A stretch of DNA of 64,000 bases from Candidatus Magasanikiibacteriota bacterium (GTDB lineage: Bacteria > Patescibacteriota > Patescibacteriia > Magasanikbacterales > GWA2-37-8), in NCBI GenBank assembly GCA_963802255.1, contig CAWDHY010000001.1, positions 491,842-555,841 on the forward strand. Reading direction: 5' to 3'. Below, one piece after another: positions 29,418-58,380 of the stretch (the first letter of the stretch is position 1; each line of letters starts with the position of its first letter). The notes beneath the pieces are model-generated. The model did not search any database. It was not told the DNA's origin and saw nothing but the letters and a program-made list of their open reading frames with translations. Made by a program: the position numbers and the translations under genes.

Positions 29418-29495
29418 ACGGGTTAAATTAATAAATTATTCACTATTTTAGGATATCATAAATTTTAGCGATGTCCAAGCATATCTTGACTGCCG

Positions 29496-29524
29496 GGAGA
29501 TTTTGTACTATGATATTTACGATT
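29496..29524 (+). promoter_or_regulatory. near-consensus sigma70 promoter for tRNA-Asn (TTGACT-17-TATGAT)
   Basis: 'TTGACTgccgggagattttgtacTATGAT'. The tRNA starts about 15 nt downstream. Confidence 0.6.
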
Positions 29525-29572
29525 CTTTCACAATTTATTCCGGGGTAGCGCAGCGGTAGCGCAGTTGACTGT

Positions 29573-30176
29573 GGGCACGTTCTCGCCCCATAATAATTTT
29601 TTTATGGGAAGGGAAAAAAGGAGATATGCTGATCGTGCCGCCTATATGATAAAAGCGGTTGATAAAAGACGGAAACTAATCCGAAAAATGTCAGTCGAAT
29701 ATATGGGTGGTCGCTGTGCAATTTGTGGCTATAATAAATGTAATTATGCGCTTGAATTCCATCATAAGAATTCTGACGCGAAAGATTTCGGCATTTCAGC
29801 TAAAGGATATACCAGGAGCTGGGAGAAAGTTAAAGCCGAGCTTGATAAGTGCGTTTTATTGTGCGCAAATTGCCACAGAGAAATACACGAAGGCATGACG
29901 CAGCTTCCTTGAGTAATCAAGGTCGTAAACGAGGTGAATTGTCCCGATAAGCAATCGGGATCTCGCAAATATATAATTTTAGTGAAGCGGGACTGGGAGC
30001 CTAAACTGTGAAAACAGTATGGTAATCAGCAGCCGAGCCCGCAAAGGCGGGAAGGTTCAGAGACTATCCTTTTACAGGAGTACATCAATTTTTTTGATGG
30101 AAGCGCCTCGCTCCTTCGATTTATATGCGAAGGATGATGATATAGTCCACCCTATTTGGAAACAGATAGACAAGTG
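29573..30176 (+). mobile_element. group I self-splicing intron with internal HNH homing-endonuclease ORF
   Basis: Recognisable group I core elements: P-like 'GCGGGA' (29986-29991), Q-like 'CCCGC' (30037-30041), R 'GUUCAGAGACUA' (30055-30066), S 'GAUAUAGUCC' (30139-30148), P2-like hairpin 'UCCCGAUaagcaAUCGGGA', terminal G at 30176. The ORF occupies a 5' peripheral loop. Confidence 0.7.
29604..29912 (+). CDS. HNH homing endonuclease (intron-encoded)
   Basis: '...CAICGYNKCNYALEFHHKNSDAKDFGIS...LLCANCHREIH': CxxC...HH...N...CxxCH, the HNH motif. The start could be ATG 29604 (MGREK...) or 29690 (MSVEY...). The ORF-track TTG start at 29565 lies inside the tRNA exon and is rejected. Confidence 0.7.
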   Translation: MGREKRRYADRAAYMIKAVDKRRKLIRKMSVEYMGGRCAICGYNKCNYALEFHHKNSDAKDFGISAKGYTRSWEKVKAELDKCVLLCANCHREIHEGMTQLP

Positions 30177-30222
30177 TAATCAATTGGTCGTGGGTTCGAA
30201 TCCCACCCCCGGAGCGAAAGAG

Positions 30223-30247
30223 AAAAAATCCCGATAGGGATTTTTTT
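30223..30247 (+). terminator. rho-independent terminator after tRNA-Asn
   Basis: 'aaaaaATCCCgataGGGATttttttt'. Confidence 0.65.
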
Positions 30248-30250
30248 ATT

Positions 30251-30440
30251 GAACGACGGGGAGCAACCAAATAGTTTTGGTTGCGTGTGGGGTGAGAACG
30301 CCGGAGCGATGTTTGGCGAGCTTGCTGGCGAGACAAACCGCGAGGCGGTGGCCAGACAAAATTTTCGGAAGAAAATTTTAGTCGAAGCCGAATCCCACCC
30401 CCGGTGCAAAATTAAAACAAGGCCTGAACGGCCTTGTTTT
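30251..30440 (+). repeat. tRNA-linked GC-rich structured element, copy A (candidate ncRNA / miniature integrative element)
   Basis: Hairpin 1 'GCAACCAAAtagtTTTGGTTGC'. Core 'ACGCCGGAGCGATG'. Hairpin 2 'GTTTG...CAAAC'. Core 'CGCGAGGCGGTGGC'. GGAA-tetraloop hairpin 'AAAATTTTCggaaGAAAATTTT'. 'GTCGAAGCC', then 'CGAATCCCACCCCCGG', which duplicates the tRNA-Asn 3' end. Own terminator 'aaaacAAGGCCtgaacGGCCTTgtttt'. Homologous copies at 41817..42027 and 56558..56770. Confidence 0.6.
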
Positions 30441-41777: not shown

Positions 41778-41816
41778 AATCCCTCTTTATGGGGGTATTT
41801 TTGTTTTTGGCTCGGA

Positions 41817-42027
41817 GCGACCAAACTGCTTTGGTCGCAACTGGGATGAGGACGCCGGAGCGATGTCGCGCGACGCAGGATGGCGAACGCGACCGCGAGG
41901 CGGTGGCTAGACAAAATTTTCGGAAGAAAATTTTAGTCGAAGCCGAATCTTTACCCGCTTTGAGTGGCCAGCCGGGTCACAACACTAAAAATTGCCCTTT
42001 TAGGGCTCTTTTTTTATGTTTAAATTC
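41817..42027 (+). repeat. tRNA-linked GC-rich structured element, copy B
   Basis: Same architecture as copy A. Hairpin 1 'GCGACCAAActgcTTTGGTCGC' with compensatory changes. Cores 'ACGCCGGAGCGATG' and 'CGCGAGGCGGTGGC'. Hairpin 2 'GTCGCG...CGCGAC'. Identical GGAA hairpin and 'GTCGAAGCCGAATC'. Ends with 'CCAGCCGGGTCACA', a duplicate of the tRNA-Lys 3' end, plus terminator 'GCCCTttttaGGGCtcttttttt'. Confidence 0.6.
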
Positions 42028-56527: not shown

Positions 56528-56557
56528 ATACCGCCTTGGCGGTTTTTTGTTTTTGAG

Positions 56558-56770
56558 GGGTGTGGCGAGCAAATAGTTTTGCTCGCCAAAGGACTTGAAC
56601 GCCGGAGCGATGCCGCGCGACGCATGCGAGCGAGCGCGGCCGCGAGGCGGTGGCTAACCCGAGCCGGCGGAAGCCGATGAGAGGCGAAGCCAAGTCCTGT
56701 CACCCCGACTAAACAGAAATACCGCGTGAGCGGTTTTTTGTGTTTTGAGGGGTGTGGCGAGTAGCAAAAG
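56558..56770 (+). repeat. tRNA-linked GC-rich structured element, copy C, with approx. 75-bp duplication of tRNA-Pro(CGG) 3' end + terminator
   Basis: Hairpin 1 'GGCGAGCAAAtagtTTTGCTCGCC'. Cores 'ACGCCGGAGCGATG' and 'CGCGAGGCGGTGGC'. Hairpin 2 'CCGCGC...GCGCGG'. 'CGGCggaaGCCG' GGAA hairpin. 'GGCGAAGCC'. Then 'AAGTCCTGTCACCCCGACTAAACAgAAATACCGCgtgaGCGGTTTTTTGTgTTTTGAGGGGTGTGGCGAG', which duplicates 56511-56577 with a compensated loop change in the terminator. Confidence 0.6.
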
Positions 56771-56925
56771 TCCTCATTTACCCGATACAACCTTGACGAA
56801 TCAGCTAAACTATGCTATGAATATCTGTCGTGAATATTATAGGATATTAAATTCTCGCTCGTTCAACAACGGCCCTTCAGGACTGTTCTCAAAAAAGCCC
56901 ACCTTATAAGTGGCAAGGAGGTCGC

Positions 56926-57663
56926 GTGCAGATAGAAGAGGTCAAGATAACCGATCATATCTGGAGCTACGTTTCCGAAAAGTATCTCGAGGCCGGACTT
57001 GCTGACGAGCTGATCCACGGCATGAGGCACATGCGCCACGTACGCGAGGTCTGCAACAACATCTGCGACGTGCAGATCTTGGACTCGCGGGTCATCAGGT
57101 GCCTGCACGCAGCGGTCGACATCCACGACATCGGTCGGGCCGTCGACAAGACGCGCGATCACGCCATGGTGTCCTCGGAGGTGTTCCGGCAGATGGCTCT
57201 CGATGATCTGGCAACGGACGAGTACGAGGCGGTGCACTTCGCCGTCATACACCACAGCCGCGGCCTGCGCGCCATCGGCATCAACGAGGCGAAAGACCTG
57301 AAGGAGGTCCTGCTCGGCCTGCTGTGCGTCTGCGACCACGCGGATGCCGCAAGCCCCGACGGTGCGGCCCGAGCCGCGCTCGCACTGAAGAACAAACCGA
57401 TCCTGTCGGACAACTACACGGCCGAACATCTGCGCGAGCTGATGACCAACGGTTGCGCGCCGGAGCTGATGAACGTCTACAAGAACGACAGCCTGGCGGC
57501 TCACCTGGCCTACAACTACTGCGCCACCGCGCACATCATCGCGCCGGTCCGGCACCTGCTCAACGGCCGCTACATGAAGGACTGGAGCGATCCGCGCCTC
57601 GCCATGTTCCGCGTCATCGTCGAGACCTACCTGAATCTGCAGGAGAAGAAGAACCTCCTGTAG
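56926..57663 (+). CDS. HD-domain phosphohydrolase encoded in a GC-rich foreign insert
   Basis: GTG start 5 nt after a perfect SD 'AAGGAGG'. 'HGMRHMRHVREV...VDIHDIGR' is the H...HD motif. Third-position-GC-rich codon usage contrasts with the rest of the window. Confidence 0.6.
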   Translation: MQIEEVKITDHIWSYVSEKYLEAGLADELIHGMRHMRHVREVCNNICDVQILDSRVIRCLHAAVDIHDIGRAVDKTRDHAMVSSEVFRQMALDDLATDEYEAVHFAVIHHSRGLRAIGINEAKDLKEVLLGLLCVCDHADAASPDGAARAALALKNKPILSDNYTAEHLRELMTNGCAPELMNVYKNDSLAAHLAYNYCATAHIIAPVRHLLNGRYMKDWSDPRLAMFRVIVETYLNLQEKKNLL

Positions 57664-57700
57664 CCCGCGTTTCCACCGACTTCGGAATAGAAGTTCCTTA

Positions 57701-57727
57701 GCCCCCACTCCTGGGGGCATTTTTTTA
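57701..57727 (+). terminator. rho-independent terminator after HD-domain gene
   Basis: 'GCCCCCActccTGGGGGCattttttt'. Confidence 0.7.
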
Positions 57728-57743
57728 TGAATAATTCAATTAA

Positions 57744-57769
57744 AAAATCGCCTCATGGCGATTTTTTTC
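57744..57769 (-). terminator. rho-independent terminator after the cupin PGI gene
   Basis: 'aaaaaATCGCCtcatGGCGATttttttt'. Confidence 0.6.
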
Positions 57770-57774
57770 TATTA

Positions 57775-58380
57775 TCATACAATTTCCAATCCGCCCAAGT
57801 CCTCAATCTTAATCTCTGTATACAATTTATTTTTTACCAGCGCGGGAACTCCGTTATGTTCTATCACGTAATAAGCAAACCCTCTCATCTGTTTTACCAA
57901 TTCATAATCAGCGTGCCCTGGCAAACTAACCGGGTCGCGCTCTTCAAAATCAACCGGGCTATCATCAGCGGTAACTAAGTAGGTTGTGCCAATATTTGCA
58001 ACTAGGTGCCCAAAACCGGTGGGCATGTAGACGCTATCCCCTTGCTTCACTTTGATTGCTTTAAACTCATCAACAACATCCGCTATCGGGCTCCCCTTTT
58101 CATCAATAGCCAATTTTTGCGTTATCACCACTCCCTCTCCGAATAAAATCCAATATGTTTCATCAAGATCCCCGACATGATAATGGCCATAAGTTTTTAC
58201 ATATTCGCCACCTATTGTTCCGGGTTCCCAAATTGTAATATTCTTCTGCTCTTTTCCACCCCGAATCATATAGTAGTGGACATCTGGAGCGCTAACACCT
58301 GAATCCATTAGCACCTCCTTCATTTTTTCATTTGTTCTGGCCGCGTAATGCTTACCTACATTTCTAAAATCAATATTCAT
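57775..58380 (-). CDS. cupin-type glucose-6-phosphate isomerase (archaeal cPGI-like)
   Basis: Cupin motif 1 'TYGHYHVGDLDETYWILFGEG' and motif 2 'PTGFGHLVANIG' match the Pyrococcus cPGI pattern ('TKGHFHAKLDRAEVYVALKGKG', 'PPYWAHRTVNIG'). About 200 aa. Confidence 0.5.
   Translation of the reverse strand: MNIDFRNVGKHYAARTNEKMKEVLMDSGVSAPDVHYYMIRGGKEQKNITIWEPGTIGGEYVKTYGHYHVGDLDETYWILFGEGVVITQKLAIDEKGSPIADVVDEFKAIKVKQGDSVYMPTGFGHLVANIGTTYLVTADDSPVDFEERDPVSLPGHADYELVKQMRGFAYYVIEHNGVPALVKNKLYTEIKIEDLGGLEIV

Follow-up and report, generated by a model that had tools for sequence, protein, structure and literature searches.

Group I introns that interrupt the tRNA-Asn(GUU) gene between positions 35 and 36 have been described in Patescibacteria by Nakagawa et al. 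(mSystems 2026, PMC13011429; preprint 10.1101/2025.07.03.662931). According to that paper, 15 tRNA-Asn(GUU) genes and 3 tRNA-Asp genes that harbour a group I intron at this position occur in 95 complete Patescibacteria genomes, and 25 of the 28 introns inserted at 35/36 belong to subgroup IA; subgroup IC accounts for 81% of the bacterial tRNA introns, none of these coming from Patescibacteria. Four of the 15 tRNA-Asn introns, longer than 500 base pairs (bp), encode an HNH protein (PF01844). Among complete genomes, HNH-bearing IA introns at 35/36 were encountered in Patescibacteria alone, from which a limited horizontal transfer was concluded, with the proviso that draft genomes might change this picture. 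One tRNA-Asn intron was spliced in vitro and its 35/36 junction sequenced, a change of omega-G to C serving as control, and it is documented that ARAGORN and tFind miscall genes with introns at this position as Thr or Ala. The same source indicates that the 35/36 position of tRNA-Asn had been catalogued earlier with tFind, as 'Asn.4Ug' (Williams 2020). Here we analyze a stretch of 64,000 nucleotides (nt), referred to as the window, from a Candidatus Magasanikiibacteriota bacterium (assembly GCA_963802255.1, contig CAWDHY010000001.1, positions 491,842 to 555,841 of the forward strand), and present evidence supporting that it contains a tRNA-Asn(GUU) gene in which positions 35 and 36 are separated by an intron of group I carrying an HNH endonuclease gene. 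As the class, the position, the subgroup and the HNH gene have already been published, this intron is a further example and not a discovery, and the additions made here to the work of Nakagawa et al. are modest. The initial annotation of the stretch, which had considered an intron bearing an open reading frame (ORF) at 35/36 of tRNA-Asn as unusual, has to be amended in this respect.

A tRNA-Asn gene split by a group I intron

When the two exons listed in Table 1 are joined, ARAGORN recognizes the resulting 72 nt as a tRNA-Asn(gtt) with a normal cloverleaf, in which the acceptor, D, anticodon and T stems comprise 7, 4, 5 (one of them G-U) and 5 bp, respectively. The initial annotation had proposed precisely this flawless tRNA from two halves lying 604 nt apart, and its coordinates are exact. 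The tRNA body bears U1-A72 and G73, as does the nearest intron-less tRNA of the comparison set, which is a tRNA-Asn from the fetched contigs. The insert is matched over 29845-30169 by the Rfam model RF00028 (Intron_gpI) with 56.8 bits for a gathering score of 50 (E values of 9e-12 and 1.5e-13), and it contains an R element (GUUCAGAGACUA, 30055-30066) and an S element (GAUAUAGUCC, 30139-30148); it is preceded by an exon U and terminates in G. The assignment to group I, the R and S elements and the two boundaries had all been put forward in the initial annotation and are confirmed here.

A scan of one genome per species identified at least 562 genomes that encode a relative of the HNH protein, and 80 loci (L001-L080) were kept for comparison. 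The junction ...CUGU/intron...G/UAA... within a split tRNA is found in 79 of these 80 loci in addition to the window. The HNH gene lying within a split tRNA in 79 of 80 loci, its association with the split tRNA is far beyond chance. The closest loci, with 82-86% identity of the HNH protein, are titled 'Patescibacteria group bacterium' or auto-labelled 'uncultured Gammaproteobacteria'; L001 and L003 have a 5' exon identical to that of the window and the same tRNA 3' end, and the next closest loci are from Falkowbacteria. Taking these results together with the structural comparisons presented in the following sections, we consider it very probable that the locus is a functional tRNA-Asn(GUU) gene, cut at U35/U36 by a mobile group I intron that is self-splicing and whose core is IA-like.

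The internal guide sequence and the splice sites

The location of the internal guide sequence becomes apparent from the introns of L049 (251 nt) and L074 (224 nt), which have no ORF and in which P1 is a plain hairpin formed by the exon sequence GGCUGU and the first intron bases with ...C-GCAGCU. The sequence GCAGCY is present after the ORF region in 72 loci. In the window, G29900 forms a wobble pair with U35 (29572), followed by the pairs C29901-G34, A29902-U33, G29903-C32 and U29905-G30, and P1 is extended by C29899 pairing with the intron base G29573. Both U29572/G29900 and the G30176 preceding the 3' exon are invariant across 79 loci. The pair between the first intron base and the base preceding the guide is kept in 67 of the 72 loci (GC 51, AU 13, GU 2, CG 1), a value reached in none of 2000 shuffles. 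Since the G of the guide lies opposite U35 and the following C, A and G pair with G34, U33 and C32, the anticodon-loop bases recognized by the guide are those that do not vary in tRNA-Asn; position five of the guide does not track the variable tRNA pair 31-39. The insertion point between positions 35 and 36, as initially deduced, is consistent with the wobble at U35 as well as with the junction sequenced for a homologue by Nakagawa et al. (PMC13011429). A different guide, 'GGUCG' at 29921, had been tentatively suggested; this sequence is in fact the 3' side of P2 together with J2/3, the true guide being GCAGCU at 29900-29905.

The last codons of the ORF, ACG-CAG-CUU-CCU-UGA (T-Q-L-P-stop), encode the guide and the 5' strand of P2. 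As the guide falls inside these codons, the ORF is located within the P1 loop (L1), and the conservation of its C-terminal T-Q-L-P is explained in part by the overlap with the guide and P2.

Splicing would proceed along the following lines. The precursor would be transcribed from a promoter upstream of the tRNA, and the guide GCAGCU (29900-29905) would pair with C32-U33-G34-U35 of the 5' exon, so that the U35-G wobble comes to lie at the splice site. Attack by an exogenous guanosine would take place after U35; G30176 would then occupy the guanosine site, and ligation of the exons would yield the mature tRNA-Asn.

The unspliced gene (29539-30214) is missed both by ARAGORN in default mode, which finds six other tRNAs in the window, and by the Rfam tRNA model. 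ARAGORN in intron mode places the outer ends of the gene correctly and misplaces the intron, leading to a tRNA-Ser(gga). The relatives are mostly labelled Thr(tgt) with an intron at 33, others being labelled Asn(gtt), Tyr(gta) or Ser. These labels vary because a shift of both intron boundaries by two bases is also formally possible: GU is repeated at both junctions, and a tRNA-Thr(UGU) whose intron is moved 5' by two bases (33/34), which is the label that most homologous loci receive in intron mode, would equally have an exon U and an intron-terminal G. We regard such a tRNA-Thr as extremely improbable. The wobble G of the guide faces U35 and not U33, the latter being paired with A29902. Moreover, U1-A72 and G73 are of the Asn type, whereas the tRNA-Thr genes of comparable genomes, including the one present in the window, have G1-C72 and U73. 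Finally, the sequenced spliced product of a homologue corresponds to 35/36, and the same miscall by ARAGORN and tFind is documented in that study (PMC13011429). The geometry of P1 and the tRNA identity thus lead us to reject the calls of Ser(gga) for the window and of Thr(tgt) for most relatives, and the gene is retained as tRNA-Asn(GUU).

No other tRNA-Asn gene was found by default ARAGORN in the 64-kb window, and the interrupted gene is probably the only tRNA-Asn gene of the cell. There is here a pitfall in annotation: genes of this kind are missed by default tRNA finders or else are called Thr or Ser, so that the corresponding genomes seem to be without tRNA-Asn and their completeness scores are lowered.

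Structure of the ribozyme core

The cores of 34 homologues, from the guide to the terminal G, were aligned with MAFFT and folded with RNAalifold, which recovers P2, P3, P4, P5, P6, P6a, part of P7.1, P8 and P9, with double changes in 32 of 41 pairs. A hand-completed structure, to which the P7 pseudoknot, P7.1 and P7.2 were added, was also counted: 92.2% of the cells are paired across the 34 homologues, and changes on both sides are seen in 36 of 52 pairs. The covariation score amounts to 0.559, compared with at most 0.165 for slid partners, and none of 500 shuffles reaches it. The register of P8 was taken from RNAalifold, the one of the hand-completed structure being off by one column. The group I fold proposed initially is in this way supported by the Rfam score as well as by helices P2 to P9, which fold with covariation. 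The Rfam alignment itself proved unreliable for P1, P2 and P4, placing P1 in the ORF and treating the P4 region as a long insertion, and the comparative alignment was used instead. The helices are listed in Table 1 together with the other features of the locus.

Table 1. Features of the split tRNA-Asn gene, its intron and the neighbouring elements. Positions are those of the window unless a locus is named.
Feature	Positions	Strand	Basis and remarks
Promoter-like site 5' of the tRNA gene, TTGACT-17-TATGAT	29486..29514	+	Consensus scan; putative function
tRNA-Asn 5' exon, positions 1-35, ending in U35 of GUU	29539..29572	+	ARAGORN; 34 nt
Intron-internal promoter-like site, TTGACT-18-CATAAT	29565..29594	+	Consensus match; putative
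604-nt group I intron with a G at either end (3'-terminal omega-G 30176)	29573..30176	+	Rfam RF00028 and covariation
HNH endonuclease ORF, 102 amino acids, in the P1 loop (L1)	29604..29912	+	CxxC...HH...N...CxxCH pattern
Internal guide sequence (P1 3' strand), C-GCAGCU	29899..29905	+	ORF-less homologues; conservation in 72 loci
P2 hairpin, CCUUGA-GUAA-UCAAGG; strands 29907-29912/29917-29922; ORF stop UGA in the 5' strand	29907..29922	+	All 6 pairs change on both sides; 100% paired
P3 5' strand, CGAGGUG, followed by J3/4 AAUU (29937-29940)	29930..29936	+	7 pairs, 3 compensatory; 98.7% paired
51-nt insertion inside the P4 5' strand, hairpins 29942-29960 and 29961-29992	29942..29992	+	Alignment
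P4, CUGG (29993-96) with UCAG (30026-29)	29993..30029	+	4 pairs, 3 compensatory; 100% paired
P5/P5a, enclosed by P4; P5 motif CCUAAA...UAUGG, resembling the 11-nt GAAA receptor	30000-30022	+	Read from the sequence
P6, GCC/GGU; P6a, CCCGC (30038-42) with GCGGG (30047-51)	30032..30056	+	All 5 P6a pairs compensatory
P7 5' strand, GACUA, in the R element; partner 30143-30147	30062..30066	+	Invariant in 34; fits Rfam consensus
P7.1 (30067-30079) and P7.2 (30083-30099), between P7 and P3'	30067..30099	+	All 8 pairs compensatory; 85% and 78% paired
P3 3' strand, CGCCUCG	30104..30110	+	Covariation
P8 hairpin	30112..30134	+	RNAalifold, compensatory changes
P7 3' strand, UAGUC, in the S element	30143..30147	+	Rfam alignment
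P9 hairpin with GAAA tetraloop, then 7-nt tail to omega-G 30176	30152..30169	+	7 pairs, 6 compensatory
tRNA-Asn 3' exon, U36 to A72 and discriminator G73; CCA not encoded	30177..30214	+	38 nt
Terminator-like hairpin and U-tract after the tRNA	30223..30247	+	Read from the sequence, absent from the scan listing; putative
Trailing element after tRNA-Asn	30257-30405		
Trailing element after tRNA-Lys	~41811-41980		
Trailing element after tRNA-Pro(CGG)	~56548-56708		
Trailing element in relatives	L002 2423-2578; L044 1110-1257		

The presence of P7.1 and P7.2 between P7 and P3' is a hallmark of subgroup IA, the compact IC3 core being devoid of them. The intron is considered as IA-like and was not filed as IC3 because both are present at this place. 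The motif in P5 is one that we take to be a GAAA receptor; with the GAAA loop of P9 it resembles the receptor/tetraloop pair of small tRNA introns. A pairing of GCGGG with CCCGC, described initially as P4-like, turned out to belong elsewhere: CCCGC pairs with the downstream GCGGG and forms P6a, and the upstream GCGGG (29987-91) is part of the 51-nt insertion, where it closes one of the hairpins. This insertion is common to the window, L001, L002 and L038 and is absent in most relatives; its first hairpin displays compensatory changes between the window and L001. As a separate observation, the P8 loop of L064 (within about 2950-3000 of L064:2788-3031) has GTTCGAATCCCACTTGGGGAG, which resembles part of the T-arm and acceptor end of a tRNA.

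The HNH protein

The protein encoded within the intron has 2407 homologous clusters, the best 120 of which are 66-87% identical to it and nearly all 102-135 amino acids in length; the exact window protein has no record in the assembly index. An alignment of 33 homologues contains 40 invariant columns, among them the residues C38, C41, H54, C87, N89, C90, H91 and H95, and the C-terminal T-Q-L-P is near-invariant. The Pfam HNH model (PF01844) matches 29 of 33 close homologues at E<0.01 (best value 4e-6), and several carry a precomputed PF01844 match. Membership of the HNH family is deduced from the invariant motif and from these Pfam matches of the homologues. The AlphaFold model (pLDDT, predicted local distance difference test, of 75.8) comprises a long basic N-terminal helix (residues 2-33) and a strand-strand-helix arrangement formed by residues 50-54, 83-87 and 88-96. 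The protein would be an active nuclease with the intron-less gene as its target: it would cut intron-less tRNA-Asn genes near the anticodon, and repair would copy the intron into them (homing).

Is the window allele functional?

Several observations weigh against a functional element of this kind in the window. That the allele itself splices would follow from comparison with its homologues. The pair A31-U39 of the window tRNA leaves A31 opposite C29904, a mismatch beside just four Watson-Crick or wobble pairs in P1. A search for P10, in which the 3' exon would pair with the sequence 5' of the guide, revealed no such helix. Covariation is neutral on P7, because this helix is invariant in the 34 sequences, and the insertion of 51 nt into the 5' strand of P4 is unusual. 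With regard to the HNH protein, the window copy scores 18.3 bits with PF01844, below the cut-off of 21.4. A profile search of the PDB yields weak matches to McrA and to a group II intron maturase (E ~0.03) over the segment C..LC.NCHRE.H, and the best Foldseek matches in the PDB, which are all HNH nucleases (Cap5, ScoMcrA, Cas5-HNH and Gme HNH), have just E>=0.4. The initial annotation had placed an HNH ORF in a 5' peripheral loop; its motif and its location, now specified as the P1 loop, are confirmed, the Pfam score of the window protein itself being below threshold.

The A-C mismatch in P1 and the insertion in P4 might be regarded as marks of decay, the locus being a dead, disrupted tRNA pseudogene in which the insert no longer splices. 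Both traits, however, recur in several separate genomes and are for this reason considered to be tolerated. The mismatch is found in 11 of 57 tallied loci (the window and ten others), and a published ORF-less intron from Paceibacteria also has it (PMC13011429). Furthermore, both exons are intact and fold perfectly, every core helix is intact in the window copy and consistent with the covariation of the family, the ORF has kept its full length, with 82-87% identity to the ten closest relatives, and default ARAGORN finds no further tRNA-Asn gene in the 64-kb window. A pseudogene is therefore judged very unlikely, and we retain the functional tRNA-Asn gene with a self-splicing intron as the preferred reading.

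Distribution and possible mobility of the HNH-bearing intron

The titles of the loci include, among Patescibacteria, Falkowbacteria, Magasanikbacteria, Parcubacteria, Uhrbacteria, Peregrinibacteria and Saccharibacteria. Other titles are Elusimicrobia, Omnitrophota, Acidobacteriota, Pyrinomonadaceae/Blastocatellia, Aerophobetes and Saccharicenans, these being the labels given by depositors to metagenome-assembled genomes (MAGs), for which mis-binning is possible. At least 79 genomes, with labels of several phyla, have the HNH gene at the same position of the intron. In two loci, an ORF-less tRNA-Asn intron is accompanied by a free-standing homologue of the HNH gene (L049, 2023-2349 and 2501-2782; L074, 2501-2794 and 2833-3129), which lies about 150 nt downstream of the tRNA in L049 and just upstream of it in L074. 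The free-standing protein of L049 is without the T-Q-L-P tail. These copies beside ORF-less introns suggest that the nuclease gene moves independently of the ribozyme.

The free-standing copies also bear on the function of the protein, which might no longer, or not only, be a homing nuclease and might act as a maturase or as a domesticated factor. Such a role would explain why the protein, with 40 invariant columns in 33 sequences and a constant length, is more strongly conserved than is usual for a selfish endonuclease, the basic N-terminal helix predicted for residues 2-33 could bind nucleic acid, and the evidence for the nuclease family is weak for the window copy. On the other hand, the residues for metal binding and catalysis (two CxxC pairs, HH, N and H) do not vary, as would be expected of an active HNH nuclease, and part of the C-terminal conservation is accounted for by the overlap with the guide and P2. 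Moreover, ORF-less relatives exist, and one of them splices in vitro without protein, according to the published work (PMC13011429); the free-standing copies fit a mobile nuclease gene. We therefore regard a maturase or a domesticated factor as unlikely, if somewhat less so than the alternatives discussed above, and a homing nuclease remains the favoured function.

The arguments appear evenly balanced between two views of the HNH-bearing tRNA-Asn intron. It may be an element, present in at least 562 genomes at the species level, that spreads actively across phyla and whose HNH gene enters and leaves the P1 loop, or else a rare and mostly immobile relic of Patescibacteria, the view to which the published survey of complete genomes pointed. 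Its occurrence in hundreds of species, with labels of several phyla, bears on the question whether tRNA introns spread little between bacteria. Together with the guide lying inside HNH codons and the free-standing HNH genes, this broad distribution could be useful for understanding how homing-endonuclease genes colonise ribozymes.

Promoter-like sites

The consensus scan yielded 3 promoter-like sites, for 2.4 expected by chance. The -35 hexamer of the intron-internal site (Table 1) lies in the anticodon stem and its -10 hexamer in the intron, 9 nt before the ATG of the ORF; no Shine-Dalgarno sequence precedes the HNH ATG of the window. Among the relatives, the 5' intron segment, mostly 16-40 nt in length, contains a perfect TATAAT in 24 of 70 loci, a TG two bases upstream is present in 20, and a -10-like hexamer is found in 33 of these loci as compared with 14.8 in shuffles. 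The proximity of the -10-like site to the ATG and the absence of a Shine-Dalgarno sequence suggest that the HNH gene may be expressed from its own internal promoter as a leaderless mRNA. In the relatives, an extended -10 element (TGnTATAAT) is often observed 5-9 nt before the HNH ATG, likewise without a Shine-Dalgarno sequence.

An element trailing tRNA genes

An exact second copy of 16 nt from the tRNA-Asn 3' end (CGAATCCCACCCCCGG) was noticed 192 nt downstream of the first. The tRNA-Asn gene is trailed by an element of about 150 nt, of which further copies are present in the window and in relatives (Table 1). The copy following tRNA-Asn is 85% identical to its equivalent in L002, with flanks that are not conserved, and is absent from L001. 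It folds stably (-68.7 kcal/mol, z = -5.3) and has no match in Rfam at either gathering or permissive thresholds. A metagenome scan with the two invariant core blocks (ACGCCGGAGCGATG ... GAGGCGGTGGC) retrieved at least 120 contigs (L081-L200), and the counts given hereafter hold among the matches listed. A tRNA on the same strand accompanies 98 of 113 assessable copies, mostly ending 20-100 nt upstream of the core, and 31 anticodons are represented. For about 80 of 91 copies, the 3' end of the element exactly reproduces the 3' end of that tRNA over at least 12 nt and mostly over 19 nt. Of the 77 scorable copies, most have the left edge of this repeat at C56 of the T-loop, right after GTT, and the right edge lies 0-65 nt beyond the tRNA. 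The segment just 5' of the core is complementary to T-loop positions 56-60 and to the 3' strand of the T-stem of the same tRNA. The closing stem covaries (one pair occurs as UA 13, CG 13, AU 8 and GC 7), as do two internal hairpins, and the 5' acceptor strand of the tRNA is copied in 14 of 60 cases, for 1.7 in permuted controls.

No recurrent integrase, transposase, TnpB or reverse transcriptase was found near the element, the clusters of neighbouring proteins corresponding to housekeeping genes; viral contigs gave 0 matches, and a search of the literature retrieved no description. The family thus appears to be undescribed. As candidates, it might be a tRNA-mimicking small RNA, a tiny mobile element producing a long and variable target duplication anchored in the T-loop, or a scaffold-plus-guide RNA. 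It is the most unusual feature of this neighbourhood, and its value would by far exceed that of the intron if it proved to be a new mobile element or a new class of tRNA mimic. Separately, tRNA-Pro(CGG) and a second, truncated copy of the trailing element are closely followed on their downstream side by a region (about 56900-58000) with a G+C content of about 51%, compared with about 40% in the rest of the window; this region may have been acquired horizontally at a tRNA site.

Comparison with known introns

The classical IC3 introns of bacterial tRNAs, such as those of cyanobacterial tRNA-Leu(UAA) at 34/35, of Azoarcus tRNA-Ile and of Agrobacterium tRNA-Arg, are likewise self-splicing, interrupt the anticodon loop and form P1 with anticodon-loop bases. 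Introns of the Azoarcus type also possess a GAAA loop L9 and a receptor-like motif in P5, as does the intron of the window, which differs from the IC3 introns by the presence of P7.1 and P7.2, by its position at 35/36 and by its ORF. A homing-endonuclease gene nested in a tRNA group I intron is also known from the cyanobacterial introns of tRNA-fMet (PD-(D/E)XK) and of tRNA-Arg(CCU) (LAGLIDADG), which differ from the window intron in the nuclease family, the host tRNA and the insertion position.

As to the nuclease, a profile search of the PDB detected no sequence similarity between the HNH protein of the window and the solved HNH homing enzymes. The HNH-encoding group I introns of phages (I-HmuI of SPO1, I-TevIII of RB3) and the IA introns of T4 have an IA-type core with P7.1 and P7.2. 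The phage HNH introns, in contrast to the one described here, interrupt protein-coding genes, and the placement of their ORF is different.

The closest known systems are the introns reported by Nakagawa et al. (PMC13011429), which share with the window intron the tRNA, the 35/36 position, the exon U and terminal G, the subgroup IA and the Patescibacteria as host group. HNH-bearing introns in their supplement have the same guide, ...GCAGCUUCC..., where the ORF ends. The core of the window intron shares 75.6% identity with the intron that was spliced in vitro in their work and 79.7% with their ORF-less intron from Paceibacteria. The window copy is distinguished from their set by a genome outside the 95 considered there and by the 51-nt insertion of two hairpins in P4. 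The overlap between ORF and guide, the internal promoter-like site and the free-standing HNH genes described here are not mentioned in the accessible part of their report. Finally, the four HNH-bearing cases given there compare with the HNH-bearing form found here in at least 562 species genomes, including MAGs labelled as other phyla.

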